64,000 nucleotides of DNA from Candidatus Hydrogenedentota bacterium (GCA_045863335.1 BTVY01000036.1:1-64000); one strand, 5' to 3'. Shown: positions 35,559 to 56,784, counted from the stretch's first letter. Made by a program: numbers and translations. The notes: generated from the sequence alone by a model not told the origin.

Positions 35559-35666
35559 GGCCCAGGGGATAGGGGGACTTGGGCGGGGACGCCCAAGCCA
35601 CGGCTCAATGCCTCGCGTAACTGACCGACGAAGTCAGGCGGCAGAATGGGCCTAGATTAAAAGGTC

Positions 35667-35772
35667 CATGTCGTCCATACCGTCCATATCGTCCATATCG
35701 TCCATGCCCAGACCATTTCGCAGTTCCACCAACCTTTCCATTTCGGATTTCGGGCTTCGAATTTCGGATTTG
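35667..35772. repeat. 9-mer (CATATCGTC-like) x4 and 7-mer (TTTCGGA-like) x4 repeats
   Basis: catgtcgtc cataccgtc catatcgtc catatcgtc, then tttcgga tttcggg cttcgaa tttcgga. Confidence 0.7.
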
Positions 35773-35821
35773 CCTTCTGTGTAGTACTGTGCGGCGTAGG
35801 AAGTTACACAACGCTAATCTC

Positions 35822-35869: not shown

Positions 35870-36841
35870 TTGCGGACCAAGGGTCGTTCAGCTCGGAGGA
35901 GTCAGGTGCGGTTAGTCGAAGAACATCCCCTCCCACAATCGCCCAAGAAGGCGCCCGAAGTGTTGGTCGTCGGCGGCGGCAAAGGGGGAGTCGGTAAGAC
36001 CTGTTTCTCGGTGAACATCGCCGTCGAGATCGCCCGGAAGGGCTGGCGCGTCGTGCTCGTAGACGCCGATCTCAGTTGCTCCAACGTAGAGACCGTCCTC
36101 GGAGTCGAGGTGGGCGCTAAGCTCGACGACTTCTTCTACCAGCGCGGCGGCAAGGACATCCGCGCCATCCTCACCGAAACGCAATACGAAAACCTTGCGC
36201 TCATCCCTGGCACCACGGGTCTCCTCGACGTTGCCAATCCCAAGTATCAGCAGAAGGTCGCCTTTATCCGGGAACTCGGGCAGCTCGACGCGGATATCAT
36301 CATCGTCGACCTCGACGCGGGCGCCCATTTGAATACGCTGGACTTCTTCCTGATGACCGACACCAACGGCGTCCTCGTCATCACACCGGAAAAGACGAGT
36401 ATCGACAACGCGTTCAAGTTCCTCCGCGCGGCCCTGTTCCGGAAGATCGAGCGGTTTTATCAGAGCCCCGAAGTGGCGCTTCTGTTGAAACGAAACCAGA
36501 CCTTGCGCGAATTCATTGACAGCGTGCGGTCTTCCGAGATTTTCGAGGAGAAAACGCGAAAACGGGTCTGCGGGGAAATTGTATCCATCGCGCGGGCCAT
36601 CAAACCGAAGATCGTCGTGAACCGCGCGCGCAACGCTTACGAAGCCCAGATCGCCGCGAACATCCTATCCAAGCTCGCCCGGCAGCAACTGATGGTCGAA
36701 CCCGAGAATCTCGGGTTTCTGTACTTTGATAAATGCGTTCCGGAGGCGATAAACTGCGGAACACCGTTCGTCGTGAGTCACCCCAGGCAAAAGGTAACGG
36801 CATGTGTGGCCGATATCGCCAATCGGCTGGGATACTTCTAG
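35870..36841 (+). CDS. MinD/FlhG-family P-loop ATPase
   Basis: GGKGGVGKT deviant Walker A, VDAD and VDLDAG. The start may be GTG 35906. Confidence 0.85.
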   Translation: MRTKGRSARRSQVRLVEEHPLPQSPKKAPEVLVVGGGKGGVGKTCFSVNIAVEIARKGWRVVLVDADLSCSNVETVLGVEVGAKLDDFFYQRGGKDIRAILTETQYENLALIPGTTGLLDVANPKYQQKVAFIRELGQLDADIIIVDLDAGAHLNTLDFFLMTDTNGVLVITPEKTSIDNAFKFLRAALFRKIERFYQSPEVALLLKRNQTLREFIDSVRSSEIFEEKTRKRVCGEIVSIARAIKPKIVVNRARNAYEAQIAANILSKLARQQLMVEPENLGFLYFDKCVPEAINCGTPFVVSHPRQKVTACVADIANRLGYF

Positions 36842-36933: not shown

Positions 36934-38268
36934 TTACAGCCCCCAATAGTCGGTTTCGGGGCTGGCTACGCCAGAGGTCCAGCGGTTCCAGTCCTTAAGA
37001 ATCCGCTTTACGAGGGGGCATCGTCGGGCGTCCACAATCTGGTCGGCCAGAGCCTCGGCTTTTGATCGCAGTTCTAGCGTGCGGGCGTTCTGCCGGCAAA
37101 TGCGCGCTTCGATGAGTACGGCGCGCAGTTGACACTTGAGATTTCCGGTACGAACACCGTATGCGGTGGCTTGTTCGAGATAATCTCGTGCAATCTCATA
37201 GTCGCCTTCGAGCTTCGCAAGACCCGTCAAGGTGAAATCGCCGAGATCCCCCCAGAGTCCTTCAGACTCCTGGCCCTGGCGAACTTGTCGCAGCGTTTCC
37301 CGCGCCCGTACGAACTCTCCCTGCACGCGGTCCACCTCGGCAAGTCCTACCAGAATGAGGCCAGCCACGCGCAACTCTGCCATTCCGCCAATTTCCACTT
37401 CCAATGCGGTTTCGAGCAGGGAACGCGCGTCTGCGGACTGCCCCCTCGCCAACTTGGTCATACCGCCGTACAAGTAAATCAGCGCTTTTGCGCCGCTCCC
37501 GCCTGCGCCAGCCGAAAGCTCCACACCGCGACGGAACCACGGCTCCACCTCCGGTGAGGGAAAGAGGCCCGCGTACCGGTTGCAGCACAGGAAGTCGCTG
37601 CAGGTCATCTGTGTGACCCGCTCGTAGCGAATGAGCTCCTTGAGATGCTCCTGACCGTATGCCCCGGCTACCAACTGACCGCATCGGACGCTGGTAAACG
37701 CGGAAAACCGCCGAAGATCGATCCTTGCGGATCGCTCGAGGTGCAAGAAGTTTTCATTTGCCATGTCCAGTACAGCCTTTGCATCGCCATATCGCGCACT
37801 CTTGTATAGTTGGTATCCATCCCACGCGATCGCTCGATTGGAAGGGCGCGGCGGCCCTTCGACCTGTTCTTGCATGCCGATCCAGTCCACGACGCGCCGA
37901 ACGTGGGGACTTGCCGAATCTGGGCGGACGCCAGAGGCGACTGCGACCTCCAGGTTCCGCAAGCGCTCAGTGAAGTACTCCGCGGCCCGGTGCAGATCCC
38001 GGCCGGACCCGTAGATACCGATTTCGTCGTTTCCAACCACCCACCGGTTTGCGCCCTCGGAAAACTCCCAGACCTGGACGGCGAAGCGGCGCCAAGCGTT
38101 TCCGTATCGAATGTCCAGATGATGTATGGGGCGTAACGCGGCAGCGCACTTCGTTGCGAGATCTGGACATGACTTCTCCGCCACCTGGGGCGCTGCGGAG
38201 AGGGCCTCGGGAAAAAGGCCCAGGTTCGTGAAAAAATCAAAGTGCTCGTTCGTGCCGGTTGGTGGCAT
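36934..38268 (-). CDS. Hypothetical protein with HicB-like N-terminal segment and TPR-like helical region, third gene of the Pup-like operon
   Basis: ATG lies 8 nt after the upstream stop (alternative starts 38301 or 38346). Contains WVVGNDEIGIYGSGRDLHRAAEYF and GLAEVDRVQGEFVRARETL. Confidence 0.6.
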   Translation of the reverse strand: MPPTGTNEHFDFFTNLGLFPEALSAAPQVAEKSCPDLATKCAAALRPIHHLDIRYGNAWRRFAVQVWEFSEGANRWVVGNDEIGIYGSGRDLHRAAEYFTERLRNLEVAVASGVRPDSASPHVRRVVDWIGMQEQVEGPPRPSNRAIAWDGYQLYKSARYGDAKAVLDMANENFLHLERSARIDLRRFSAFTSVRCGQLVAGAYGQEHLKELIRYERVTQMTCSDFLCCNRYAGLFPSPEVEPWFRRGVELSAGAGGSGAKALIYLYGGMTKLARGQSADARSLLETALEVEIGGMAELRVAGLILVGLAEVDRVQGEFVRARETLRQVRQGQESEGLWGDLGDFTLTGLAKLEGDYEIARDYLEQATAYGVRTGNLKCQLRAVLIEARICRQNARTLELRSKAEALADQIVDARRCPLVKRILKDWNRWTSGVASPETDYWGL

Positions 38269-38276
38269 TGTTCGAT

Positions 38277-40991
38277 TCAGTTGCCGTGAATGAGTGTCCA
38301 TTGTCTCACTGACTCCTCCAATTCGGGGATATAGCCCGCCCGACACGGATTGGAATGGGTAGCATTCGAATCAATCTCTTGCGACTCATGGGGCACCTCA
38401 TCATCCTGACAAGAGTCCGGCAAACGGCCGAAGGCTCTGGGGTAGGTTCTGCCACCACCGAGCTCAAAGGGAAAGGTAGTTGGTGCGTCATCCGATCGCG
38501 CGTGTTCGGCCCGCCTGCGCAACCAGTCCAGGGCCATGTTTACGCTCTCATTCTGGAGGGCATAGTTTGCCGTTCGGTCGGTCGCCTCCAAATCGCGATT
38601 GATTCGGGCCAAGGCCCGTTCGCACCGTCCTCGCTGTTCTCCGTCAAACGTGGAATCTTCCAACGCGATACGCAGTTCGAGCAATGCCGTCCGTAGCCGG
38701 TTGCTGCGCTCGCGGAAGCTATTGCTTGACTGAGCGTAGAGATGCATGGCCTCGCCGCGATAGTGCCGAATACGCGGACTTCCGCAGAGCAGCGGACGAT
38801 CTTCGGCCCATTGTGAAACTGCCAGGCACCGCTGAAAATCACCTGCTTCCGCGGAGAACTGGATGGCGAAAGCTACCCCCATTTCCTCCCTGTCGCGCCA
38901 GCCGCTTTCGTCGAAAACCTCGCCCGCGACTTCGGCTAGACAAGCAATGAGGCGCGACGTGCGGGAAGGTCCGATGATCTGTTGCACTGGACGCAGGCAG
39001 AAGCCGAAAGGACCAAATACCCCGTAGTTCCGGGCGAATAGCCGGAACGCGGTTTTCACGAGCGGTCTCGCGAAAGCGAAGCGCACATGCTCGTGGTCGA
39101 ACCGGCGATGGTTTACCTGAATCAGACGTGCCACCGATCGCGCGCTCTCCTCCGCCACATCCGCGAAGGATCGAACCGAGATCTGTTGATCGATAAACGC
39201 CTGATCCCGCAAGAGACGAATTAGGCCCCTCTCGCGACCCTGGTCCACGTGCCAAATACCAAAGCATGGCTCCAGAATCTCGCGGCTTAGAAGCGGAGAA
39301 AGAGGATCCTGTTGATTGGACGGGACGGGCTCGCGAGAACCACCACGCATCAGCCCACCGACCGGTTGCGTCCGCCCCATGGACTCGCGTGGAGCCCTGT
39401 TTTGGCGGTCGGAAACCGTCGGATTGGGAGTGCGTTCGCCCAAGTACACATCGATGGAGGGGAGAAGTCGCCGCAACCCGCTCGTTTCAGATCGTGCTCT
39501 CGAAACGGTACGCAGTTCCATCCATGTGGACTCGGGCTTGTCGGGATCAGTCAACGCCAGGGTCAGGCCATTCTTTTTGTCAACCAGACTGTCCCACGTG
39601 CACGAGTATAGGCCGGGGTCTGCTGCATGCTCGGCAACGAATTGACCGCGAATACGTGCCCGCGGCGAGGCGAGTTCAGAGACGCCGGCAGCGCGATCGG
39701 GCAGCGCGACACCAAATTGCGCGTACTCCAGCGCGCCTGCCGCATCGAGCTTGTCAAAAAGACCATCACCAAGTAATGGCCACCGGGTGTACAACTCCTC
39801 CGCCTCCGCTTTGAGCACCGAGTATTTCGCTAGCGTGTCCTCGTCCATCGCGTGACGGAGGGACACGCGGCTAGCCATTGCGGGGTCGTATTCTTCGCGA
39901 TCGTCATCTTCAGGAAAGTAAGGTGTATCCGTTGCCGCTTCAGAATCTGGCTCCCGATGCGAATCGAGCTTTCCGAAGGCGGCATTGGCGTGTCGCAATC
40001 GTTCGGCGTCGAACTGGTACCGCGCCGCCAGCCGGTGGAGGTAGGCACGAAGTATCACAGGATCGTGGGATGTGGCCAGGGCGGCCGGTCCGGTTCTCAT
40101 GCAGTCGATAGCACGGCCGAGCAAGTTACCGATATCGGCAAGGTCATCGGAGTCGGCGTATTGTTGCAGGATTGGAAGTACCTGCTCTATACACTCGAAC
40201 AACGAAAGTGCACCTTTCGTGGTAGAAGCCGTGCAGGTGCCGTCAAAATCACGATTGAACGCCAGCGCGGCAGCGTGAATATCTTCAAAATGGGGGATTT
40301 CTTCCCATTGAAGTCCTGCTTCAATGGCGGCCACCATGAGCGTAAGCCAGCCGAAACCGAGCGACACGCTCAGGGGCGATCGACTGCACCCGGCACTGGT
40401 CGCGATTTGAAGACGGCACCGTCCGGAACTTTGTACATTCTTATAGGAAAACAGGCTTTGAAGGGTTCGGCATTCGACGTGGGCTGACCAGCACGGCTCC
40501 AGCGAACCGAAACGAAGTGCGCCGGCGCCGTGGAAGGGCAATCCGATTACATACAGGGTCCGGAGGTTTTCCGAAATCATGGGCAGGTGTGGCGAGCGAA
40601 GGTCGATATTGAAATGCGTGCCGAACGTTTTTCCGGTTGCGTAGCAGGCGCCCCCGCACGACATCTCGAGAGTCAAGCGCGGGTCGCTTGTACGTAGCAT
40701 TCCATCGACTGTCTCGTAGACCCACTGCCTCAATCGGAGATGCTCCGTAACCGCACCGCGGTTGGAGTGGGTCTCGGCGGTCCGAAGTTCGATCTTCTCA
40801 CAGTCCCAGCCAACCGAAGCGCCGGACGGAAGGAAGCAGCCGTTGCCTCGCAGGGCCGGCAGGTTCGGCGTGCTGTCCATCAATCGCCCCACCAGCTCTT
40901 GCACGCACAAGGATGGAACCAGGCGGTGACCCTGGCTATGCACGGTCACCACCTGTTCCTGCTCTGTACCGCGGTACCGCAATTGCGACAC
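38277..40991 (-). CDS. Divergent PafA/Dop-family (Pup ligase-like) carboxylate-amine ligase with long C-terminal extension
   Basis: GTEQE (GxExE), FLPSGA..WD..KIELRTAE, TFGTHFN, RLQI, PRARIRGQFV and YSCTWD..LTDP are colinear with PafA motifs. RBS GAGGGA. Confidence 0.75.
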   Translation of the reverse strand: MSQLRYRGTEQEQVVTVHSQGHRLVPSLCVQELVGRLMDSTPNLPALRGNGCFLPSGASVGWDCEKIELRTAETHSNRGAVTEHLRLRQWVYETVDGMLRTSDPRLTLEMSCGGACYATGKTFGTHFNIDLRSPHLPMISENLRTLYVIGLPFHGAGALRFGSLEPCWSAHVECRTLQSLFSYKNVQSSGRCRLQIATSAGCSRSPLSVSLGFGWLTLMVAAIEAGLQWEEIPHFEDIHAAALAFNRDFDGTCTASTTKGALSLFECIEQVLPILQQYADSDDLADIGNLLGRAIDCMRTGPAALATSHDPVILRAYLHRLAARYQFDAERLRHANAAFGKLDSHREPDSEAATDTPYFPEDDDREEYDPAMASRVSLRHAMDEDTLAKYSVLKAEAEELYTRWPLLGDGLFDKLDAAGALEYAQFGVALPDRAAGVSELASPRARIRGQFVAEHAADPGLYSCTWDSLVDKKNGLTLALTDPDKPESTWMELRTVSRARSETSGLRRLLPSIDVYLGERTPNPTVSDRQNRAPRESMGRTQPVGGLMRGGSREPVPSNQQDPLSPLLSREILEPCFGIWHVDQGRERGLIRLLRDQAFIDQQISVRSFADVAEESARSVARLIQVNHRRFDHEHVRFAFARPLVKTAFRLFARNYGVFGPFGFCLRPVQQIIGPSRTSRLIACLAEVAGEVFDESGWRDREEMGVAFAIQFSAEAGDFQRCLAVSQWAEDRPLLCGSPRIRHYRGEAMHLYAQSSNSFRERSNRLRTALLELRIALEDSTFDGEQRGRCERALARINRDLEATDRTANYALQNESVNMALDWLRRRAEHARSDDAPTTFPFELGGGRTYPRAFGRLPDSCQDDEVPHESQEIDSNATHSNPCRAGYIPELEESVRQWTLIHGN

Positions 40992-41003
40992 GTCGGTTCC
41001 CTC

Positions 41004-41204
41004 TTACTCGCCGCCGGAGTAACGACGGCTCTGAACGAATTCCCTGCTCTTGCCCGACATCGATTCGTCGACGACATCCATGCCCTTTTTCAGCAGATCT
41101 TCCGTTCGCGCATTGTTTGGATTGATCTCGGCGCCGAGGTCCACCGATTCCGTACCTCCTGTCGACTGTTGCATGCAGTTTGGTTCCATCAGGGTTTTGC
41201 TCAT
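41004..41204 (-). CDS. Pup/UBact-like small protein modifier ending in GGE
   Basis: 66 aa with a low-complexity N-terminus and TEDLL...REFVQSRRYSGGE. RBS AGGAG. Directly upstream of the PafA-like gene. Confidence 0.8.
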   Translation of the reverse strand: MSKTLMEPNCMQQSTGGTESVDLGAEINPNNARTEDLLKKGMDVVDESMSGKSREFVQSRRYSGGE

Positions 41205-41291
41205 AGATAACTCCTTTTCCTTTGGATCGGCCGGCGCGCGTCCGTTGGTCCGCCACAACCGGTAGCGGCGGCTACGCCCGGCGAAGAAATG

Positions 41292-41307
41292 AGCAATCGC
41301 TGTGCCA
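41292..41307 (-). promoter_or_regulatory. Sigma54 (-24/-12) promoter for the Pup-like operon
   Basis: The minus strand reads TGGCAC-AGCGA-TTGCT, a consensus match. Confidence 0.75.
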
Positions 41308-41475
41308 GCATGGCATCGGGCTGAAGTTGTTGGAAATACTCCCGAGCGGGCTGCAGGCGGGACGGCGGATGGTTGAGTTTTGCTCGGTGAGTTACTGGCA
41401 TGCAGCCTGCCATTCCGTTGATTTAATTGGGATCTGCCGCTAGTATTGGGAAACTCAACTGGCTGCGGGGGCAGT

Positions 41476-43149
41476 ATGGAATACGCCGTTCTGGAATGCC
41501 GGCAAGAAGGACGAGAGCGCGTCTACCGTGCGACGCACGTAGATGCCGCCCACGTCTTGCAGTGCGCGCGTGAGGGCCGCTTGAGCCTTTTTTACATCAG
41601 TGAGTCTCACGCTTCCGATCTTCAGAATACGGTACCGAAAATCCGGGACATGGGCCGGAAACTTGCCGGAAAAGAATTGTCGCGGTATCTGGCCAAACTT
41701 GCGGAAAACGAAGTCGGAATTCTGAAAGGCGCGTACGACAGCACGCGGCAACTGAAGCGGAGCGTGAGTGACGCGGTCAGGAAGTGCCACGAGCAACAAC
41801 ACGCGATCGTAGCCTTCATCACGCTGAAGCCGGCGCTGTTCGCTCAGGCGTGGAAAAAGGAAACCGCCAACGCCTCTCGCGACGACCGCATCGAAGCACG
41901 GGACTTGGAGTCTCCGGTTGAACGGACACTGCGCACCTTGGGCGAGATGGACGTTCCGGAGAGTCTTGTCAAAGCGTATATTGGCAATTCGCCGTCAATC
42001 CGGCTGGTCCGCCAACTCATTCTCCGCGCAAGCGAACATGCCTACCCGGTGCTGATCCAGGGTGAATCGGGAACCGGCAAAGAGATAATCGCGCGCAGCA
42101 TTCATGACTTGAGCCGTGACCACGGCCGCGGCCCGGAATTCCGGCCCATCAATTGCAGCGCCATTTCCCCGTTCCTGTTGGAGTCAGAGTTGTTCGGGCA
42201 TCTCAAAGACTCCTCGGATCGCGCGACCAAAGACCGCGACGGGCTATGGAAATCCGCCAATAATGGCACGATCTTTCTCGATGAAATCGGGGACCTCAAC
42301 CTGGACCAACAAGCAAAGATACTGCGGGTTCTAGACACGAACGCGGTGAAGCCGGTCGGCTCTGACGAGGAAGTTCCGGTGCGCGCCCGCGTGATCAGCG
42401 CGACCAATCGTGACCTCTATAGCATGATCCGCGACGGCCGTTTCCGGGAAGACCTGTTCTTCCGTCTGAGCGTAATCCCCATTCAAACCCCGCCGTTGCG
42501 GGAACATCCCGAAGATATCCCGGTCATTGCACGTTGGCTGTGGACGGACATCGCCGGGAAATCGGCGCCTTCGCTTTCGGGTGACATTCTGGCCTGCCTC
42601 AGCGAATACACGTGGCCAGGAAACGTGCGAGAACTAAAATCCATTCTGTCTTCGCTACGCGGATATTTCGGCGTCCGCGCCCGGACCCGGGATCAGTTTG
42701 AGACGGTCATGTTTCTCAAAGGGAAGCCTGCAGCCATTGCGACTCCCCCCACCGCGCGACAATCGGCAACCCGCTCACGGGCCGAATCGTTCCAACATCT
42801 CCAACGGGTCGACGGCGTGCTGCGGGGCATCGAAGTCTTTCTGAAAGCGTTAAACGGCCGCCGCGCGATTCGGGATACGATGGACGCGCAAACCGCGCTC
42901 GGCGAGCGGCACCGCGAGCTGGCACATCTGTGTCAGAAACCTTTGCTGTTCGTGTCGCCCAAGACGTTTGACGCGGTTTACGGCGCCTGCGGGAAGATCG
43001 CGTATCTTTTGGATTCCCTGCAGACCGATTCTACGTCGTCGCCGCGACTTGCAACGCGGCAACTGGCCAAGGAAGTTCAAACTACGCGCGCCAAGGTGCA
43101 AAAACAGATTGACGGGCTCATGCCGAAACCGCGAAACCAGCGGAGCTAG
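41476..43149 (+). CDS. Sigma54 enhancer-binding-protein-type AAA+ ATPase, GAFTGA loop replaced
   Basis: GESGTGKE, ESELFGH, FLDEIG, FREDLFFRL and WPGNVREL. DSSDRA sits in place of GAFTGA, and no Fis HTH is obvious. Confidence 0.85.
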   Translation: MEYAVLECRQEGRERVYRATHVDAAHVLQCAREGRLSLFYISESHASDLQNTVPKIRDMGRKLAGKELSRYLAKLAENEVGILKGAYDSTRQLKRSVSDAVRKCHEQQHAIVAFITLKPALFAQAWKKETANASRDDRIEARDLESPVERTLRTLGEMDVPESLVKAYIGNSPSIRLVRQLILRASEHAYPVLIQGESGTGKEIIARSIHDLSRDHGRGPEFRPINCSAISPFLLESELFGHLKDSSDRATKDRDGLWKSANNGTIFLDEIGDLNLDQQAKILRVLDTNAVKPVGSDEEVPVRARVISATNRDLYSMIRDGRFREDLFFRLSVIPIQTPPLREHPEDIPVIARWLWTDIAGKSAPSLSGDILACLSEYTWPGNVRELKSILSSLRGYFGVRARTRDQFETVMFLKGKPAAIATPPTARQSATRSRAESFQHLQRVDGVLRGIEVFLKALNGRRAIRDTMDAQTALGERHRELAHLCQKPLLFVSPKTFDAVYGACGKIAYLLDSLQTDSTSSPRLATRQLAKEVQTTRAKVQKQIDGLMPKPRNQRS

Positions 43150-43177: not shown

Positions 43178-43255
43178 TTGGAGTTCCGGCTTCAGCCGGT
43201 TTGTATTCCCGAGCTTCACGCGCGCACGGGACCGCGTGAACGCGGAACTCCGAAC
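43178..43255. repeat. REP doublet upstream of the RAYT gene
   Basis: ttggagttccggcttcagccgg and inverted ccgcgtgaacgcggaactccgaac. Confidence 0.7.
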
Positions 43256-43276
43256 GCGGTCCGGGTAGTTTGACCC

Positions 43277-43898
43277 ATGTCACAGCCGGAATACTGTTGG
43301 CGTCGGCTCACGACCAAACAGCGCGAGGAGCTGCTGGCCTGGCGCAAGGAACGCGGGCATCCGTGGCACTCGCCGCCGCATCGTCCGAATTCCGGCCATG
43401 ATCGCTTCCACGTCACCGCCGCGTGCTATGAGCATCGGGCTTTCATCGGCCACAGCCCAGAGCGCATGGACACGTTTTCACGCAATTTGCTGGCCGTGTT
43501 CGCGTCGCACGCCAGCCAGACGTTCGCATGGTGTGTGCCTGCCAAATCATTATCACGCGCTGGTCGAAGCGGCGGACGTACTCAGTCTGTTGCGTGCGTT
43601 GGGAAAACTGCACGGGCGCACGTCGTATACCTGGAACGGCGAAGAGAATTCGCGGGGGCGCAAAGTCTTCTTCCGCGCTGCCGAGCGCGCGATGCGTTCG
43701 GATCGGCACTATTGGGCCACGCTGAATTACGTTCATCACAACCCGGTACATCACCACTACGTTGAGCGCTGGACAGACTGGCCGTGGAGTAGCGCGCGGG
43801 AGTATCTCGCGCAGACCGATCCTGAAGAAGCTAAGCGAACCTGGCGCGAATACCCGCTCGGCGATTACGGCAAGGGATGGGATGACGCGGAGATGTAG
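43277..43898 (+). pseudogene. REP-associated tyrosine (Y1/HUH) transposase with a +1 frameshift near 43538
   Basis: One frame gives FHVTAAC...AWCV and another continues LPNHYHAL...NYVHHNPV...WPWSS. There is one extra C in tgg-tgt-gtg-c-ctg. Confidence 0.85.
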
Positions 43899-43922
43899 TG
43901 TGGAGCATTCGTGCGACCCGAG

Positions 43923-44041: not shown

Positions 44042-45919
44042 ATGGCTGTGGAATCCGGGGACAGCAAGGCGACTGATTTATCCTCTTTCGCGCTTTTACC
44101 CAACGCAATTCCATATGAACTTCGCATCGGTGTAACCGGCCACCGGAAGCTTGCGGACCTAGATGCAGTGCGCCGGGCGGTGGATAGGTCGTTGGACCAC
44201 ATCCAACACGTCCTGGAGTCTGCGGCGGCGCAGCCCCACGGGGCGGAAGCGGGCGGACAGACGTGGAGCAAATGGTTTGACCAGGCTTTGCTGGCGGCGT
44301 TGCGGATGGTGTGGCGAGAGGTTCCGCCTTCGCCGGCAGTCGTGGATCCCTCCATGCGGACGCCGTTGCGGTGGTGCGCGGTGTCGGCGCTGGCGCAGGG
44401 GGCGGATGCCATCGTGGCGGAGGCGGTGCTGGCGCGGGCGGAATCGCGGTTGCGGGCGATCCTTCCGTTTGACGCCGACGAATACGGCACGGATTTCACG
44501 AGCCCGGAACATCTCGATACCTTTCATCGTTTGCTCGCGCGCGATCCCGGTGCGCGTGTGGTCGGTACGGTTGATGGTACGAAAGCGACCCGCAACCGCC
44601 TGTACCGCGAAGCGGGGGAGGCGGTGATTCACGGGTGCGACATCCTGATTGCGATCTGGGACGGCGAACCGGCGAAGGGCGAAGGCGGCACTGGGGACAT
44701 CGTCCAGCATGCCTTGGAACATGGCCGGTTGACACTCTGGGTTAATGCGAAGAACCCAGACTCGCCGGTTAAACGGCTCGTGCCGCGCAGCGAGATCGAA
44801 CGCGAGTCGGCAAAACCGATCCCGTGGACGACCGCCGAAGTCCCCGCGACAGCCAAAGCGTTGAGCCTTGGGTTCCACCAGATCTCCGCGTACAACCGGG
44901 ACCTGGCGGTCGGCACGGACGCAGTCGCGGAGACGTTTGCGAAAAAACGCACTACGATGCTGGAGGCGGCCCGGAAAAGCAACCTGCCCGAAACGGCGCT
45001 CGGGGAAGGGACCTGGACCGCGCTGGCCCAGTATTGTCGTGCCGATCAACTCGCCCTGCGCTACCAATCGCTTCACCTCCGTAGTGCGAAGGGGCTGTAC
45101 CAACTCGCCGCGTTCGGCGTCACCGTCTCCGTAATTCAAGTCCTGTTCTTTCCCGCCTGGTACGGACTCGTCGCGCTGGAAGTCGCCGCCATGCTGGCCG
45201 TACTCATCATCCTGCGCATCTCGCGAAAGGAAAACTGGCACGAGAAGTGGCTGCACGACCGCCACTTTGCCGAGCGCTTGCGCGGCCGGATGTATCTCGA
45301 CCTGCTTGGCGAAGACTCCGCGCCAGGCGACGCGCGGGCGGCTGCATCGCTGGCATTCTATAGCCGGCCCGCGGACTGGGTGACGCTGGCTTTTGCGAAT
45401 CTGGAACCGCCGTCGACTCGGCCCGCTCAGAGCGGTGCGGAATGGATCGCACTCCGCGATTTCATTTACGCAAACTGGGTCAACGCCCAGGCGAAGTACC
45501 ACATCGACAATGCGGAACGGAAGGTGGGGCCGCCAAAACGCACCCACTGGATCGGGGCGGGGTTATTCACCGCGACGCTGTTGGCAGCGCTGTTGCACGC
45601 CATCGGCGTGGGTCACGGCTCCCACGGAGACCACCACGGCATCTCCACCGTCACGGCGCTCCTATTTGCGACGACCGTGCTGCTTCCCCTCTGGGGCGCA
45701 ACCTTGCACGCCATCGACACCCTGCACGATTGGCACCGCATCGCCAGCCGTTCCGAACGCATGGGCCGCCAGCTCCAGAACGTCGCTGAGGGTCTCAAGA
45801 ATGCCGCGACTCCAGAAGAAATTCGGCGCCAGGTCCGCACGGCCTACGAGATCATGGCCACCGAAAACCAGGAATGGGCCGCGTCGCTGGCCTTCCGTGG
45901 ACCGACTTTGCCTGCGTAG
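44042..45919 (+). CDS. SLOG-domain protein with two SLATT-like 2TM modules
   Basis: RIGVTGHR, SALAQGAD and LIAIWDG...GGTGDIV (SLOG). ADQLA..TM-TM..W...R..AERLR and WV..Q..Y..TM-TM..ENQEW (SLATT-like). Confidence 0.78.
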   Translation: MAVESGDSKATDLSSFALLPNAIPYELRIGVTGHRKLADLDAVRRAVDRSLDHIQHVLESAAAQPHGAEAGGQTWSKWFDQALLAALRMVWREVPPSPAVVDPSMRTPLRWCAVSALAQGADAIVAEAVLARAESRLRAILPFDADEYGTDFTSPEHLDTFHRLLARDPGARVVGTVDGTKATRNRLYREAGEAVIHGCDILIAIWDGEPAKGEGGTGDIVQHALEHGRLTLWVNAKNPDSPVKRLVPRSEIERESAKPIPWTTAEVPATAKALSLGFHQISAYNRDLAVGTDAVAETFAKKRTTMLEAARKSNLPETALGEGTWTALAQYCRADQLALRYQSLHLRSAKGLYQLAAFGVTVSVIQVLFFPAWYGLVALEVAAMLAVLIILRISRKENWHEKWLHDRHFAERLRGRMYLDLLGEDSAPGDARAAASLAFYSRPADWVTLAFANLEPPSTRPAQSGAEWIALRDFIYANWVNAQAKYHIDNAERKVGPPKRTHWIGAGLFTATLLAALLHAIGVGHGSHGDHHGISTVTALLFATTVLLPLWGATLHAIDTLHDWHRIASRSERMGRQLQNVAEGLKNAATPEEIRRQVRTAYEIMATENQEWAASLAFRGPTLPA

Positions 45920-45993
45920 CCCGCGTATTCTGGGCGACTATCGCGCCGCAGCGAAGCGTCGAGCGGAATGCCCGGCGAAATTCGATTTCGAGA

Positions 45994-46002
45994 TGCTATA
46001 AT
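45994..46002 (+). promoter_or_regulatory. Extended -10 promoter
   Basis: TGcTATAAT about 48 nt before the ATPase-RyR start. Confidence 0.5.
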
Positions 46003-46049
46003 GGCCGACCGGGGTCACGAACAGCGTTTTGGGACGGTGGGGATTCATC

Positions 46050-48572
46050 ATGGGCGTGAAGAAGATCGCAGTGCTTGGTGATGTCTGCGCGGACGTTCTG
46101 GAGGTATCAACGCCCTCCCGCAAACGGACGCTGAGCGAAACGGTATCGAACTGGCGTCTCTATCCGGAAACATACCTCCACATGCTCCCCGGTGGCGCGT
46201 TGTTGCTGGCGGAGTTCATTCAAGCAGCGTGTGACGGTGAGGTTGTCGGCTTGGACGGTGTCGACCTCGACAAGCCTCAGCACGACCGTATCCTCCAATC
46301 CCACCTGAAACTCGGCACCTTCCCAAAGACTCTCGGCAGCAAAGAAACCACGTTGCGGCTTCGACGGTACGCGGGATTCTCCGGCTCCGAAAATGCGCCA
46401 CTGCTACCGTGTATCGCAAGCGCTAAGGACGTCTCGCTCCTCGTGCTGGACGATCCGGGCAATGGATTCCGGTACGAGCCGTCTGCATGGCAAGCTGCCT
46501 TACGCACTTTGCCGAAAAGATCCCCGATTATCCTCAACATGTGCCGTCCACTCATGAAGGGGCAATTGTGGGACTACCTTGCCAAGTCGTACCGCGACAA
46601 TCTGCTGCTCGTCTTGAGCGCGGACGATCTACGGACGGTAGGCGTGCAGATCAGCAAGCGCCTATCCTGGGAGCGTACGTCGAAAGATCTCGTTTGGCAG
46701 CTGGAGAACAACGTATTGCTTCGTCCGCTTCGTCGATGCGGTCATGTGATTGTGCGATTTGGCATTGACGCCGCCATATACACGCGAAACACAGGAAAGA
46801 CGTCGCTGTCCCAACTGTGTTTTGATCCGTCCTCCGTGGAAGACGGCTTTGCGGAAACAATGCCCGGCACCATGCCGGGATTGACCTATGCCTTGGTCGC
46901 ATCGCTCGCCGCTGCGATAGACCGGACCGGCAATTTCGAGGAACTGACAAGCGGAATTCACGCCGGAATTCGTAGTGCGCGCGCTTTGCTCCGTACCGGA
47001 TTCAAAGTCGAGAACGCGGCCCCCCGTTATCCCATTCCGGAGATCTTTTCACCAACCGACTCGGACAAAACCCGTCTCGGTTGTGTCGAAATCAGTCTTA
47101 CCAAGTCCGGAAAGGATGCCGATCCGGGGTTCTGGCGGATACTGGACCAACTCAGCGAAAAACGATTGGAGGAAATGGCCTTCCGAATCGTTCGCCAAGG
47201 CGTGGAGAGGTCGCTCGGCGAGGTACCGTCCGGCCGGTTCCGCCATCTTCATACGGTCGACCGGGCCGAGATTGAGCACTTTCGCGCGATTCAGAATCTG
47301 ATGCGGGAGTATGTAAGCCGCGAAAAAACCAAGCGCCCTCTTTGCATTGCGGTATTTGGGCCTCCCGGTGCTGGGAAGTCTTTTGGGGTCGCGGAAGTCG
47401 CAGAAACGGTGGCACCGGGCAAGGTCCGAATGATCGAGTTCAATGTCTCTCAATTCGATTCCCCGGACGATCTCATCGACGCGCTGCACAAAGTCCGAGA
47501 TTCCGTTCTCGAAGGGCAAATTCCGTTAGTGTTCTTCGACGAGTTCGATTCCGGCTACGGCGGAAAACTGGGGTGGCTGAAGTACTTCCTCGCGCCCATG
47601 CAAGACGGTAAGTTCAGGGACGGCGAATCGATTCACCCCATTGGCAAATCCATCTTCGTGTTCGCCGGAGGCACTCGCGACTCGTTCGAGGCATTCTCCG
47701 CGGATGGGGTCCCAGGAACGGCCGAAAGTGCGGGGTGGTTCCGCGATGCTAAAGGTACCGACTTCGTGAGCCGCCTGCGCGGTTTCGTGGACGTGCTCGG
47801 CCCAAATCCGCGCGACGAGAAGGATAAGGTGTTTATCGTTCGACGCGCCATGTTGCTTCGATCCCTCTTGGAACGCCTCACACCCCAGTTGGTCGACGAC
47901 GAAGATTATGCGCGTGTTGATCCGGGCGTGCTGCGCGCACTCATCCACGTGCCAGATTACCGCCACGGCATACGCTCCATGGAAGCGATACTGGATATGA
48001 GTTCCTTGTCGAACGCCCTGTCCTTCGAGCAGGCGGCGCTTCCTCCAGCAAACCAACTACGACTCCATGTGGACCCGGAGATCTTCGAACGATTGGTACT
48101 TCAGGACGCTTCGTTTGGCGCCGTCCGGGAGCAGCTCGCACAGGCAATTCATGAACGCTTTGTCCGAGATCAGGCCGGAAACCGGCCACAGAGTGACGAG
48201 GCCATGCAACCGTGGGATGAATTGCTGGAGACCTACAAGGAAGCCAACCGGCGCCAAGCGGACCACATCCCGGAGAAGCTGAAAGCCATTTCCTGCAGTT
48301 TCACTCCTTTCACTCAACAACCAGTTTCCCCCATTAACTTCTCGAAAAAAGAGATCGAGATAATGGCGCGAATGGAACACGACCGGTGGGTACGAGAACG
48401 CCTGGAGGAAGGGTATACCCCAGGTCCCAGAAATCCGATCAAGAAAACCAGTCCATATTTGGGATCGTGGGAGACACTGGACGACAAGGTGAAGGAATTT
48501 GATCGCAATACAGTTCGGGCCATTCCGGATCTGATGACCAGCGTAGGTTTCCGGATCTATCGGTTGAGCTGA
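46050..48572 (+). CDS. PfkB-like N-terminus, AAA+ ATPase and tandem RyR domains
   Basis: GPPGAGKS and VFFDEFD. LAQAIHE...PWDEL..YKEAN and MARMEHDRW...PYL.SWE.L...KEFDR. Confidence 0.8.
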   Translation: MGVKKIAVLGDVCADVLEVSTPSRKRTLSETVSNWRLYPETYLHMLPGGALLLAEFIQAACDGEVVGLDGVDLDKPQHDRILQSHLKLGTFPKTLGSKETTLRLRRYAGFSGSENAPLLPCIASAKDVSLLVLDDPGNGFRYEPSAWQAALRTLPKRSPIILNMCRPLMKGQLWDYLAKSYRDNLLLVLSADDLRTVGVQISKRLSWERTSKDLVWQLENNVLLRPLRRCGHVIVRFGIDAAIYTRNTGKTSLSQLCFDPSSVEDGFAETMPGTMPGLTYALVASLAAAIDRTGNFEELTSGIHAGIRSARALLRTGFKVENAAPRYPIPEIFSPTDSDKTRLGCVEISLTKSGKDADPGFWRILDQLSEKRLEEMAFRIVRQGVERSLGEVPSGRFRHLHTVDRAEIEHFRAIQNLMREYVSREKTKRPLCIAVFGPPGAGKSFGVAEVAETVAPGKVRMIEFNVSQFDSPDDLIDALHKVRDSVLEGQIPLVFFDEFDSGYGGKLGWLKYFLAPMQDGKFRDGESIHPIGKSIFVFAGGTRDSFEAFSADGVPGTAESAGWFRDAKGTDFVSRLRGFVDVLGPNPRDEKDKVFIVRRAMLLRSLLERLTPQLVDDEDYARVDPGVLRALIHVPDYRHGIRSMEAILDMSSLSNALSFEQAALPPANQLRLHVDPEIFERLVLQDASFGAVREQLAQAIHERFVRDQAGNRPQSDEAMQPWDELLETYKEANRRQADHIPEKLKAISCSFTPFTQQPVSPINFSKKEIEIMARMEHDRWVRERLEEGYTPGPRNPIKKTSPYLGSWETLDDKVKEFDRNTVRAIPDLMTSVGFRIYRLS

Positions 48573-48579
48573 TCTGCAA

Positions 48580-50301
48580 TCAGGATTGCTGCATTCCCGC
48601 CACTACCAACCGCGGTATGTTACGGACCGCGCTCCGATCGTACTCCTTGATGGCGTCCGGCAGTTCGTCATAGGGAACGAGATACGGTGTTTGCCGCCGG
48701 CCCACGTCTTTTTCTCCCAACGTCCAACCCGCCAGAAACCGCTCCGCGTTCCAGCGTGCGTGCTCCATACGCGCAAGTGTTTCCACCCGATCCTCGGGAA
48801 TCTCCGGCGTCTCCTCCAGTTCCGCGATTGTTCGCACGCGGTACCCCAATGCGCGAAGCTTCACGGGGATGTGGTCGGCCTGTTGCCGATTGGAGTCCTT
48901 GAATTCCGGCGACAACCGATCCCAATCTTCTGTTGATGGACTCTTCTGGCCGCCGCGCTCCCGCTGTTTGGCCACGTAGTCCTCGTGGATCAGGCGGGCC
49001 AGCTTGTCCAGCCCGTCACCCTCCACCATTTCCCAAGAACACGACGAACGCATCGATCCGAAGCAGTACATGTTCTGCCCATTCGTGGACGGGGAGAACA
49101 AAGCCGCGAGCCCGGAATCCTGGTTTATCCGCACGAACACCGGTACGCTGTCTCGTTCGACATGACGGCGCACGCTCAGTGCGTACTGCGCGTTTCGCGA
49201 ATCGTTGTCAAAGCAGATGGCAACACTGCAGATTTCGGCGGGGTCCTGCGCGATCTCGGCGATACGGCGAAGCGTAAGTGAATCGTCGCATTCGGCGTGG
49301 ACAAACTCGATATCGCAGACATTGTCCAGCTGGGGGTACCTGACATATAGCCCCCGCCTTCTCGCCTCCGCCGAATGGTCGACAACCGTGACAGCCAGCC
49401 GTTTCCCGTTGGCAACGTGGCCGATCTTTGCTGCTTGAATGAGTAGACTCTCACCCATCTGCCCCAAACCAAATAAAACCAATCGGATTCGCCGGGGGTC
49501 ATCCGGGCCAATGTATTCGCGATCCAGGGGATGATCGCGCAATAGAAGGCGTGAAGCGTTTTCGTAGGAGTTGAAGACCGACACGTTGAACTTCTGTCCG
49601 GTCTCGCGGAGCATCGGGTGATCTTTGAACAAAGCCGCAAACGTGAAGTCCATCACCTGGACTAGACAACAAAGACGGTGACGGTTGGCGTGCGTTTGGC
49701 TCTCATCGAGTATTTCCTTCGTGCGAAGCGCGATCTCGATATTGACCCCGTCGTTTCCGCAAACCGCTATGGCCGTGCGCGCCCGTTCCACATGCGCCCG
49801 GCGAAGGATCGCCTGATGCGTTGCGTCTCCCGTCACCAAGAGAATCCCGGAGTCCCGCGCGACCGTAAGGCCATCGGCATGAGGATTGGATTCGATGATC
49901 GCCACTTTGTGCCCCCGGCTTCTGCATTCCTCCGCCAACTGCAAGCCCCTGCGCCCGAGTCCGCAGATCACCACATGATTCCGGGCGAGCGCGAGTTGAA
50001 GTCCACGCCAGCGATTCCGGATGAATTCAACGAAGATCCGCAGAACCGCCGACGCCGCAGTCAACGGCGCAAGAATCCGCGCCACTTCCAGTTGCCACGG
50101 AACCGGACCTTCCACGCCTCCGGATTCCATGGTAAAGAGCTGCCAGTCCAGGTAAACGACATCAAGCACGGTGAGGTTGTATCCCTTCAATTCACCGTGC
50201 CGGACAAATCCAACATATCCGAGTACCAACGAGGCTGCTGCAGCGACCGCGATCACAATCCATCCACGGCTGACCCTCCACAGGCTTCGAAGTAGATTCA
50301 T
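48580..50301 (-). CDS. 2TM channel-like domain, TrkA-N (RCK) domains and tandem RyR domains
   Basis: TM, pore-helix-like segment, TM; then HVVICGLGRRG, LFGLGQMG and LARMEHARW...PYLVPYDEL...KEYDR. RBS GGAG. Confidence 0.8.
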   Translation of the reverse strand: MNLLRSLWRVSRGWIVIAVAAAASLVLGYVGFVRHGELKGYNLTVLDVVYLDWQLFTMESGGVEGPVPWQLEVARILAPLTAASAVLRIFVEFIRNRWRGLQLALARNHVVICGLGRRGLQLAEECRSRGHKVAIIESNPHADGLTVARDSGILLVTGDATHQAILRRAHVERARTAIAVCGNDGVNIEIALRTKEILDESQTHANRHRLCCLVQVMDFTFAALFKDHPMLRETGQKFNVSVFNSYENASRLLLRDHPLDREYIGPDDPRRIRLVLFGLGQMGESLLIQAAKIGHVANGKRLAVTVVDHSAEARRRGLYVRYPQLDNVCDIEFVHAECDDSLTLRRIAEIAQDPAEICSVAICFDNDSRNAQYALSVRRHVERDSVPVFVRINQDSGLAALFSPSTNGQNMYCFGSMRSSCSWEMVEGDGLDKLARLIHEDYVAKQRERGGQKSPSTEDWDRLSPEFKDSNRQQADHIPVKLRALGYRVRTIAELEETPEIPEDRVETLARMEHARWNAERFLAGWTLGEKDVGRRQTPYLVPYDELPDAIKEYDRSAVRNIPRLVVAGMQQS

Positions 50302-50588
50302 GACACAACTCCACCGTGATGCCCTGAGCATCATTTCCCCGATTTCCCCTGATGCGCCAATCTCGCGTGTGGCCACGGGACTATACCATAGACCAGCATT
50401 CGCTACAGTCCCGTCTCTTCGACGGTTCCTGGCCCGGCCAATTCCAAACTTTCGACGATTCGGCAGCGAATCAGATGCCGTATTGATTCTGCTGCGTCTT
50501 TGCCGTACCTCGCGTATAATGCCTCTGGGCACGAACGAAGCTGGGGCTAGGGCCGCTCCCCGTACCGGGGTGCGCGGGTCAGACGTCA

Positions 50589-51611
50589 ATGCTTGGGGGA
50601 TCCGTCATGCGGAAACTCTCGGAATACGTACTTGGCAGGGAACTACAGTTCGGTACCGTTTCATCCAGGACACGGCTGCAGCGCTTTCGATCTGTTGCCG
50701 GCCGATTCTTGCTCGCTCTCGCAGCCACGAGCATACTGAGTTGCGCACCTGCCAGCGATGGTTACTCGGTGAGTCAACTCCAAACCAGCGCCGGAACCGA
50801 ATACCGCATGGAGTGGACGGAAGACGGCGAAACGCGCCACTTCATGACCCTGATCGAATCCGGTGGCGCCTTGGCGCTACGCCCCCACCCCGGGGTCGAC
50901 CCGAATGGCTGGGGATCGAGTTGGTACCCGCAGCCCTTCCTGGCGGGGGCGGTGCTCAGTCACAGTGGCGTGGACTCGGCCATCGCAACAGCGGACGGAA
51001 TTGAAGTTGCTCTATCCGGAGACGTATCAAGCGACGCCAACGGCACCTACGGCGCATGGTCGCTCGACATGGTCTTTACCTACGACGCGGTCGCAAAGAA
51101 GGTAGCAGGGGACGGCGTACTTTCCATCGCGCTGGATGGACCGATCGGTGCCGGTACCGGCGATTTGAATCTTTACAGAATCGCGTCGAACTACCTGGAC
51201 GACGTCCCCTTGCTCAGCGGCGGCATGGGCGATACCGGGGATATGGACTACGCGGCGGTCGTCGCCAACGGCTTCAACTTCGACTGGTACCCGCCAATCC
51301 AACCGGCCCACTTCCCCTCGGACATGACCGACACCCTTTCCATTGACGTCAAAGGCCAATACAACGAGGTCGATTCCGCCACGCAGGGCCACGCGCCAAT
51401 TGCTGCCGCCTATAAGCCCTCATTGAAAGTCGTGCTGAGCACGGACCAGTCGATCCTCACCTTCGGCGGGTTCTACGACACAAGCGTCGCACAAGACTTC
51501 TGGGAAGACAACGTCGGCATCACACCGCTCCTGCGCGTCGGCACAGGTGGAACCAATTTCGATTTCGACGTGGACTTCGAATCGATCGCCCTGGCAGGCG
51601 ACGGGGCGTGA
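50589..51611 (+). CDS. Hypothetical acidic beta-rich lipoprotein
   Basis: Hydrophobic stretch ending in an ILSC lipobox. The true start is probably downstream of 50589. Confidence 0.6.
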   Translation: MLGGSVMRKLSEYVLGRELQFGTVSSRTRLQRFRSVAGRFLLALAATSILSCAPASDGYSVSQLQTSAGTEYRMEWTEDGETRHFMTLIESGGALALRPHPGVDPNGWGSSWYPQPFLAGAVLSHSGVDSAIATADGIEVALSGDVSSDANGTYGAWSLDMVFTYDAVAKKVAGDGVLSIALDGPIGAGTGDLNLYRIASNYLDDVPLLSGGMGDTGDMDYAAVVANGFNFDWYPPIQPAHFPSDMTDTLSIDVKGQYNEVDSATQGHAPIAAAYKPSLKVVLSTDQSILTFGGFYDTSVAQDFWEDNVGITPLLRVGTGGTNFDFDVDFESIALAGDGA

Positions 51612-51749
51612 TTAGCTATGATCGAAATACAGGCTGCAGACGAGTGGGTCTTGGCCTTCGAGGGATCTGTTGCTGTGCTCAATCGAGCGATTCGGTGGGG
51701 ATGACGTGATCGACCAGCTTACTTGCCCGCAAGTGGACTCCAGGAAAGG

Positions 51750-55472: not shown

Positions 55473-55553
55473 CGCCAAGATCCGCCGTTTATCGCTTCAC
55501 TTCATTTGGCGAAAGTATGCAATCCGGAGGATTGACAGGATCGAGAGGGAACC

Positions 55554-56270: not shown

Positions 56271-56784
56271 CGACAGCGTTGGCCAATTTCTTCGGCCAGT
56301 TCGCGCGTTGTCGCGTGCAGCCGGGGATTCGTGGGGCGTCGCACAACTGCCTTCTGGACTTTCCTGCGGGAGGACAAATACGTATACTGTTTGAGCCAGG
56401 GACGCGTAAGCGCCGATGCGGTGCGCGCCAGGGTGGCGCTTGGCTCTGATTCGGGAACACGGACGGCGGAGTTGGACAAACTGGCTGTGGATTCAGTCTG
56501 GATTTGCGTACATGCTGGGCCGGGTGTTGCCCATGCCCGTCGGCCCTGATTTGTTGTGGTCGCGTCCAGCGTCTGCCCTTGCCTGTGCGTTGGGACAACA
56601 GAACGTCCTCATGCTATACTCGGTTTACCGGAAGTTAGTCACGCGGGAGGAGAGCAGGGAGTACCCTGCAAATCCCCCCGGGCGCGTCGAAAGCAACGTG
56701 TAAGTCTGCGTGAGTCCTTTACTTGTGGCGCGAATCGCCGGCGTGTGCAGCCGATTTCGCTAACCGACTTGGATACTTTTAAAC

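Follow-up and report, generated by a model that had tools for sequence, protein, structure and literature searches.

A candidate free-standing Pup-type conjugation operon at the edge of a variable genomic island in a Candidatus Hydrogenedentota bacterium

Layout of the operon and its promoter

The window analysed here is a single stretch of 64,000 nt from a Candidatus Hydrogenedentota bacterium (GCA_045863335.1 BTVY01000036.1:1-64000), whose genome of 6.75 Mb is 99.4% complete. It contains an operon of three co-directional open reading frames (ORFs) on the minus strand: a small ORF for a 66-aa protein, a 904-aa ORF whose product carries a divergent Pup_ligase (PafA/Dop) domain, and a third ORF, ending at 36934, for a protein with a tetratricopeptide repeat (TPR) solenoid. 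After their predicted roles we call the products the modifier, the ligase and the partner (Table 1). The modifier ORF begins with an ATG at 41204, preceded at a distance of 7 nt by the sequence AGGAG, and ends at a stop codon at 41004-41006 directly after the C-terminal residues YSGGE. A gap of 10 nt separates this stop codon from the GTG start of the ligase ORF (40991-38277), and the third ORF, if begun at the ATG at 38301 (455 aa), overlaps the 3' end of the ligase ORF by 25 nt. The first-pass annotation of this DNA had placed the start of the third gene at a GTG at 38346, yielding a protein of 470 aa. The ATG is more likely to be the true start since all five homologues are 447-456 aa long and align from that methionine.

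The ratio of non-synonymous to synonymous substitution rates (dN/dS) in the small ORF is 0.11 in comparison with the aligned locus L003 (11 synonymous and 5 non-synonymous changes) and 0.13 with L002 (6 and 3 changes, respectively). Third codon positions account for 11 of the 16 differences in the former case and for 6 of the 9 in the latter, and the C-terminal half is the more constrained one. This substitution pattern indicates that the small ORF is a real gene under purifying selection. L002 and L005 are one and the same contig, as are L003 and L006, and the four aligned loci represent three independent sequences.

The sigma-54 motif upstream of the modifier gene occurs once in the 64 kb, with 0.13 matches expected and at least one match in 12 of 100 shuffled sequences; it is identical in the four aligned loci while its flanks vary. 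A gene for a bacterial enhancer-binding protein (bEBP), the type of activator on which sigma-54 promoters depend, is transcribed divergently from the operon, and rpoN was found in the genome. The elements of a sigma-54 regulon unit, i.e. a −24 GG/−12 GC promoter, an adjacent bEBP gene and rpoN, can thus all be recognized by sequence, and the tight minus-strand operon behind a sigma-54 promoter described in the first-pass annotation is upheld. The first ~175 aa of the bEBP match no recognised sensor domain, and family scans detected no Fis-type helix-turn-helix after its AAA lid. Inverted repeats (41346-41358 and 41398-41410) lie 40-100 nt upstream of the promoter and could be a binding site for the bEBP.

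Table 1. Positions of the operon, its control elements and the island boundaries in the window
Feature	Position	Strand	Basis
Sigma-54 (−24/−12) promoter, TGGCAC-N5-TTGC	41293..41307	−	Sole match in the window; invariant in 4 of 4 aligned loci
Modifier, 66 aa, Pup-like, ending GGE	41004..41204	−	ORF, ribosome-binding site, dN/dS, C-terminal likeness to Pup
Ligase residues 1 to ~510, divergent Pup_ligase (PafA/Dop, glutamine synthetase-like) domain	39462..40991	−	hhalign, profile, AlphaFold2 model
Ligase residues ~511-904, variable linker and helical-repeat extension, conserved C-terminal LEExxRxWT	38277..39461	−	Eight-member family alignment
Partner, 455 aa, small beta/alpha N-terminal domain and TPR solenoid ending DYWGL	36934..38301	−	Homologues, fold, homology to fused domain
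Divergent sigma-54 enhancer-binding activator (bEBP)	41446..43149	+	PF00158 (3.9e-54), AAA_lid_14; conserved and divergent in L003
Left ~38-nt imperfect direct repeat, in the 3' end of a ParA-like gene; left island boundary	36804..36841	+	Junctions in congeners
Right-hand direct repeat; right island boundary	56743..56782	+	Junctions in congeners

Near-identical operon DNA (36934-41460) is present in sludge and bioreactor metagenome runs; in six rows half or more of the sampled words were recovered, and one of the rows may stem from the source sample itself. Pieces of the operon differ from the window by 0-10 letters in the public runs X3 and X4 and by 0-1 letters in two shorter pieces of X6, and a third piece of X6 differs by 70 letters.

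The ligase, its modifier and the TPR partner

A phmmer search with the ligase against 1.84 billion representative proteins gave 190 matches at E ≤ 1e-3, seven of them at E ≤ 1e-30. Matches spanning residues ~1-500 are 22-29% identical to the query, and the six that were tested (P0015, P0016, P0018, P0019, P0022 and P0035) all fall into Pfam Pup_ligase, with E-values of 1e-70 to 1e-84. When a profile of seven members of the ligase family (A4) was compared by hhalign with a profile of 39 uncharacterised Pup_ligase representatives (A3), none of which is a member of the ligase family, the two aligned over 494 columns with a probability of 100 and an E-value of 1.4e-44. The A3 profile alone finds the ligase in a search of the whole genome at E 1.6e-48. 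A mixed profile matches Dop (4b0r) at 1e-89 and PafA (4b0t) at 1.4e-78, and a BLASTP comparison of the ligase with the canonical PafA of Nonomuraea gives an E-value of 0.061. An AlphaFold2 model of residues 1-520 (pLDDT 87.9, pTM 0.88) has PafA or Dop as all ten of its best matches in the Protein Data Bank (PDB), with E-values of 2.3e-18 to 2.1e-12 and TM scores of 0.56-0.68 by query. The structures concerned are PafA 4bjr and 4b0t and Dop 7oxy, 7oyh, 7oxv, 4b0r, 5lrt, 7oy3 and 9cku; they are followed by YbdK/GCS2, glutamate-cysteine ligase and glutamine synthetase (GS). Because Pup_ligase proteins are part of the alignment behind the model, fold and sequence do not count as independent lines of evidence. 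On the profile and model evidence, we regard the assignment of the first ~505 residues to a Pup_ligase (PafA/Dop) domain with a GS-like fold as solid.

The ligase family proper is small. Eight proteins were found in 5.8 billion clusters, to which P0011 and P0013 can be added, the latter matching PF03136 at 9e-13. Among 135 genomes of the phylum the family occurs in three, all of one genus in which two of the five other members are positive, and a scan of 185,579 species represented by one genome each returned two loci, both from close relatives. The records of close relatives are labelled as Candidatus Hydrogenedentota metagenome-assembled genomes and, once, as uncultured Nitrospiraceae. In a quick tree the family forms a single clade (SH-aLRT 100) whose stem measures 2.07 changes per column. 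Two scans of metagenome contigs recovered no gene neighbourhoods of distant ligase homologues, and a scan of viral contigs with the A4 profile found none. A tblastn search of a plasmid collection with P0015 gave two records, both actinobacterial, one of which supplied a canonical Pup together with PafA.

The C-terminal half of the ligase is less well defined. In the eight-member alignment the central part is missing from P0004, P0005 and P0007 while the tail is retained, and structure-atlas leads for this half (TPR) are weak, all below 0.9 and with TM below 0.45. An hhalign comparison with the third protein gives an E-value of 2.9e-22 at a similarity near zero, a hint that the two may share helical repeats. 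A Walker-A-like string, AxxxxGKT, at ligase residues 115-122 was dismissed, its G being replaced by R in P0003.

For the active site, the accessible text on Dop (PMC8599861) gives E8, E10, Y92, E99, H155 and H241 as Mg ligands, D94 as the catalytic residue and R227 as being positioned on the phosphate. We mapped the Dop sites by hand via printed alignments and counted the corresponding columns in the ligase family and in 40 other homologues. Five of seven Dop sites are retained in the ligase, namely E10, E12, D63, E68 and H126 (Dop E8, E10, D94, E99 and H155), as are R193, R444, R448, W466 and also K184, a position occupied by K in 31 and by R in 8 of the 40 other homologues. Five further positions are replaced throughout the family: a tyrosine by G61 (canonical in 36 of the 40 others), a glutamate by F127 (38 of 40), an arginine by G150 (39 of 40), a second arginine by W168 (40 of 40) and a histidine by Q195 (40 of 40). 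Two of these correspond to the Dop Mg ligands Y92 (G61) and H241 (Q195). The family also has invariant residues of its own, R175 and H309, near-invariant E65 and K66 (6 of 8 and 7 of 8 members, respectively), and several cysteines that are invariant in the eight-member alignment. Judged by its conservation pattern, the ligase core is strongly constrained yet remodelled, and since the five replaced positions are otherwise near-invariant its chemistry may not be the usual one. Between the GxExE motif (E12) and the catalytic D63 the spacing is 51 residues, compared to 46 in canonical Nonomuraea PafA and 84 in Acel Dop; the ligase thus has no Dop-loop.

According to the accessible text of Iyer et al. 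(PMC2588565), Pup proteins are 50-90 aa long, end in G-[EQ] and are encoded next to a PafA homologue. The modifier has all of these features, with its 66 aa, its GGE end and its stop codon just before the ligase start. All three of its database clusters end in GGE, and the C-terminal 34 residues are nearly unchanged between them while the N-terminal half is variable. For comparison we used a single canonical Pup, that of Nonomuraea, from an actinobacterial locus (L034) that also holds PrcB, PrcA and PafA. BLASTP aligned the last 25 residues of the modifier with it without gaps up to both C-termini, with 10 of 25 identical (E 9e-5 in this single comparison). In a C-terminally anchored test against the same Pup none of 20,000 shuffled sequences matched the observed score, and one of 20,000 did so when the last three residues were left out. 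Gene position, the GGE end and the C-terminal sequence thus each support a Pup-like nature of the modifier.

Modelling of the modifier together with the ligase gave an ipSAE of 0.85 (0.86, 0.85 and 0.85 in the individual runs), the best of three controls reaching 0.00; the ipSAE mark applied is attained by 58 of 80 solved complexes and by 2 of 110 mismatched pairs. The runs have 59% or more of their contacts in common, and the pLDDT of the modifier is at least 61. Residues 31-66 of the modifier run along a groove formed by ligase residues 301-321 and 392-422, and its last residues contact ligase residues 14, 16, 64-66, 111 and 116-123, on the strands bearing E12, D63 and H126. In the model the modifier therefore sits in the Pup groove with its tail at the active-site sheet. 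This outcome may in part be a memory of 4bjr, since a PafA-Pup complex has been solved.

The first-pass annotation had read PafA/Dop motifs in the N-terminal half of the 904-aa protein and a Pup-like character in the small protein, and had suggested a fold prediction and a multimer model as checks. Both checks came out in its favour, and so did the comparison of the small protein with Pup. The N-terminal half is indeed a PafA/Dop-fold homologue; the motifs themselves are incomplete, with two Dop Mg ligands among the five replaced positions.

Five homologues of the partner, 46-91% identical to it, share invariant motifs that include a Cys-rich stretch and the extreme C-terminus. The model of the partner is of moderate quality (pLDDT 65.6). 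Its residues 211-447 form a TPR solenoid (Z up to 17.8) resembling the peptide-binding modules of LGN, Rap, PlcR and MalT domain III, in agreement with the TPR part of the earlier "HicB-like/TPR" description. The HicB-like part found no backing in Pfam at E ≤ 0.1: the N-terminal domain is modelled as four strands and a helix at residues 59-124 (pLDDT ~63-84), and the matches returned by fold searches with the partner are filled by its TPR part.

A link between ligase and partner is provided by the A3 proteins, 19 of which (out of 39) have a length of 734-908 aa and a TPR domain at the C-terminus; 11 of these 19 end in [FYH]WG[VL]. Positions 536-768 of the A3 model match the partner gene (36940-37731) at E 6.9e-32, and hhalign aligns the partner with A3 over 305 columns (probability 99.9, E 3.8e-33). 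P0013, the most divergent member of the ligase family, ends in DYQGL. Since the partner is homologous to the TPR domain that is fused to the ligase in these relatives, it is the separate counterpart of that domain, and this is strong comparative evidence that ligase and partner act together. The recorded contig sizes of two partner homologues (9621 and 30939) coincide with the sizes recorded for P0007 and P0006, two ligase homologues, which fits co-location. With ~140-260 bits on the PafA/Dop models, the cut-offs of which are 492 and 551, the A3 proteins (P0015-P0153) score as neither PafA nor Dop.

The absence of proteasome genes from the operon, pointed out at the outset, extends to the whole genome. 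No Mpa scores over the cut-off (the best TIGR03689 match has 138.8 bits compared to 504.75 needed), PF00227 finds a single open frame of 184 aa, which is HslV-sized, and hence no 20S proteasome, and neither a PF03136 match nor a second match to the A3 profile, i.e. a second Pup_ligase homologue, is present. A tag made by this system cannot feed the classical Pup-proteasome route because Mpa/ARC, the 20S proteasome and Dop are lacking, and it may be irreversible or non-degradative.

The island around the operon

A variable island of 19.9 kb, flanked by direct repeats and absent from congeners, has the operon at its edge. In congeners without the operon (G106, G104 and, by its matches, G103) window position 36840, where the ParA-like gene ends, is joined directly to 56739, and in G106 the repeat is present at the junction as one hybrid copy. 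Besides the operon and its activator, the island contains a RAYT-like gene that is probably frameshifted, a protein of 625 aa that matches SLATT weakly (E 5.6e-4 to 5.8e-3), an AAA protein of 847 aa whose C-terminal part is an RyR domain (5e-11), a 669-aa TrkA_N protein, encoded on the minus strand, which also has an RyR domain (1.5e-13), a 1249-aa protein headed by DUF4062 (7.6e-18) and a WD40 protein. A 340-aa ORF has no family match, and there is no integrase in the subset of island ORFs that was scanned. The two RyR-domain proteins side by side are unusual.

A transposase gene at 43277-43898 (plus strand) changes frame, being spread over the ORFs 43277-43765 and 43398-43898, neither of which has a Pfam match, and is therefore probably frameshifted; from its HxH-type motif we take it to be RAYT/IS200-like. 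Contigs of run X3 skip ~43199-43922, so that this element appears to vary between strains. In the intergenic region 35573-35779, there are elements of 30-40 nt that recur, 86-100% identical, on dozens of contigs in each of the six genomes available for the genus. They look like repetitive extragenic palindromic (REP) sequences, which fits RAYT-like genes.

The description of the surroundings as a conflict island is borne out as far as a variable island with SLATT-, RyR- and DUF4062-bearing genes is concerned, and the SLOG call on a neighbouring gene fell below threshold (E 0.37). The three operon proteins, the ligase included, have no match in PADLOC 2.0, the bEBP matches only the AAA part of RtcR/PspF-type models, and the remaining island genes (44042-56270) gave no convincing PADLOC match. 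Nothing was found that ties the operon functionally to its island neighbours; what points to a possible role of the operon in defence or stress is its location.

Proposed activity, alternatives and significance

We consider it probable, with a likelihood of roughly 0.6, that the operon is a free-standing, inducible Pup-type protein-conjugation module. In the corresponding model an inducing signal would cause the divergent sigma-54 activator to turn on the operon. The modifier, probably disordered, would bind the ligase groove through its conserved C-terminal ~35 residues such that the GGE end reaches the active-site sheet. The ligase would then activate the terminal glutamate with ATP, as do PafA and GS, and join it to an amine, most likely forming an isopeptide with a lysine on a target. 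Since the modifier already ends in Glu, it should need no deamidase. The choice of targets could be made by peptide-binding TPR modules, that of the 455-aa partner and possibly that of the ligase's own C-terminal extension.

Several observations weigh against this interpretation, above all the remodelling of the active site. The five replacements are found in 7-8 of the 8 members of the family or, among those that include the N-terminus, in 5 of 5, and with the positions of the Dop Mg ligands Y92 and H241 among them ATP-dependent ligation is not assured. A ligase activity is accordingly predicted as plausible but not assured. The ligase itself has no Pfam match even at E ≤ 10 and no NCBIfam match at E ≤ 0.1, so that it lies below the equivalog cut-off of 551 bits for PafA (TIGR03686), and merely 3 of 8 family members reach PF03136 in Pfam (best 1.3e-7). 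Both the fold and the complex model were built from alignments containing Pup_ligase proteins and may lean on solved structures. The modifier matches the Pup hidden Markov model (PF05639) neither at E ≤ 10 in a search with three proteins nor at the locus in a genome scan at E ≤ 1, and a PDB profile search with it finds no Pup chain, only 22 chance ankyrin-like matches at E ≤ 10. Its homologues turned up in close relatives only (at least 66% identity); a modifier beside the ligases of 35-45% identity is a prediction. Finally, X2, the one RNA-labelled run with contigs over the operon, provides no evidence of expression: neighbouring genes are covered equally evenly and one contig spans the divergent promoter region, so that transcription is not inferable from it.

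The same replacements speak for an enzyme that keeps the fold and its partner but carries out other chemistry, e.g. one that joins the glutamate to a small-molecule amine, or to nothing but itself or the partner, or that catalyses a transfer or a hydrolysis in place of general lysine tagging. Throughout the family, other residues stand at two positions of Mg ligands and in place of two otherwise invariant arginines, the family has acquired the invariant residues R175, H309, E65/K66 and several cysteines, and its stem is long, with 2.07 changes per column. However, it has retained the catalytic Asp together with three of the acidic Mg ligands, one His and the R/R/W motif of the C-domain, and the TPR modules are of the peptide-binding kind (LGN, Rap, PlcR, MalT-like), which suggests partners that are proteins. 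We consider such a change of chemistry rather unlikely, though it is the alternative we take most seriously. A pseudo-enzyme, in which the ligase-like protein would only bind the small protein and form no covalent bond, the two serving as a regulated adaptor or for sequestration, might be expected from the loss of five otherwise invariant positions and from the lack of a match to any curated family. It is harder to reconcile with the invariance of the other active-site residues across members that are only 35-45% identical, with a dN/dS of 0.27-0.29 for the ligase and with the strict conservation of a GGE end that a mere binder would not need; we hold it to be improbable.

Least probable is a Dop-like deamidase or depupylase removing a tag put on by another enzyme. 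Foldseek scores are alike for Dop and PafA, and in the profile search Dop has a small advantage in E-value, but the spacing of 51 instead of 84 residues leaves no Dop-loop, the modifier ends in Glu already, and the genome has no second Pup_ligase homologue that could perform the ligation.

A conjugation module of the kind we favour would share with the actinobacterial Pup-PafA system a small modifier encoded beside a GS-fold ligase, the G-G-E end of the modifier with the likeness of its last 25 residues to Nonomuraea Pup, the PafA/Dop fold and a modelled groove binding that resembles 4bjr. In contrast to that system, this genome lacks Dop, Mpa, PrcA and PrcB, and the ligase, invisible to PF03136 and TIGR03686, has five replacements and a C-terminal extension of ~390 aa, is encoded with a TPR partner and is placed under sigma-54 control. 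Pupylation without a proteasome is described in the accessible text of PMC12288473 for Corynebacterium glutamicum, where it supports an ARC-dependent, non-degradative disassembly of ferritin. The absence of a 20S core and a non-degradative outcome, here inferred, are common to both cases; Corynebacterium, however, retains ARC/Mpa, Dop and canonical PafA and Pup, while the present genome has neither an Mpa over the cut-off nor Dop. As far as the accessible parts of the papers go, Pup/PafA homologues without proteasome linkage have been noted in Plesiocystis and Rhodopirellula, the ligases having a four-transmembrane insert and a linked membrane protein (PMC2588565), and a single-copy PafA/Dop paralogue in Planctomycetes (PMC7947786). 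Occurrence outside Actinobacteria, a single ligase paralogue and no proteasome linkage are features of our system as well; compared to the Plesiocystis and Rhodopirellula ligases it lacks the four-transmembrane insert but possesses TPR modules, and its active site is remodelled. Coupling between Pup conjugation and a ubiquitin-like system has also been described (PMC7159879, accessible text).

Also comparable are the A3 Pup_ligase-TPR proteins from metagenomes, whose ligase domain is homologous over ~500 residues and whose fused TPR domain is homologous to the partner and has the same C-terminal motif (in 11 of 19). These proteins keep the five canonical residues and score ~200 bits on PafA/Dop models, whereas the ligase of the window does not. 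More ordinary loci exist in the phylum too. In a genome of the same order (G016, locus L016, C333 28-3376) two Pup_ligase paralogues of 562 and 471 aa flank a 70-aa ORF ending in SGQ. A TPR protein and two HtrA-like proteases are encoded next to them. Like our operon, this locus has a Pup_ligase beside a small ORF in the same phylum; it differs in having two paralogues, both recognisable by Pfam (~2e-56), and the SGQ end, and the 70-aa ORF is not Pup-like in the anchored test. It looks to us like the UBact type. Ordinary Pup- or UBact-like loci thus exist in the phylum, and the operon in the window is of another kind. In the literature we found no Pup_ligase with TPR, no sigma-54-driven Pup-like operon, no Hydrogenedentes Pup and no anti-phage pupylation, with the limit that supplementary data of the 2008 and 2020 papers may hold relatives. 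The link through ligase-TPR fusions, the (F/Y)WG(L/V) tail common to a wider uncharacterised family and the defined island go beyond the first-pass annotation.

Ubiquitin-like conjugation is known from anti-phage systems such as Bil and the CBASS Cap2 type, which employ E1/E2 thioester chemistry. The present operon would resemble them as an inducible or island-borne tagging module among conflict-type genes, while fold and chemistry (E1/E2 thioester as opposed to GS-fold acyl-phosphate) are unrelated. As a speculation to which we give little probability, the operon could be the first case of Pup-type conjugation, with GS fold and acyl-phosphate, in inter-genomic conflict. The bEBP would sense infection or damage, a free TPR receptor and a second one borne by the ligase would pick invader or host proteins, and GGE would be attached to them to disable or mark them, irreversibly for want of Dop. 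The whole would travel in the 20-kb island with SLATT, RyR-AAA and DUF4062 STAND-like genes, and the Pup_ligase-TPR family ending in (F/Y)WG(L/V) would constitute unrecognised tagging enzymes with built-in substrate receptors.

Pupylation is understood almost solely as a route to the actinobacterial proteasome, and PafA is held to select hundreds of substrates without adaptor domains. If the operon is active, Pup-type tagging would have an independent, receptor-guided life outside proteolysis, and the ligase would be a test case for the extent to which a GS-fold active site can be remodelled. PafA already serves in proximity labelling (PUP-IT), for which the system, if active, could be a source of compact new ligase/tag pairs. 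Because the operon sits on a mobile island next to genes of the conflict type, a possible role in defence can be tested directly.

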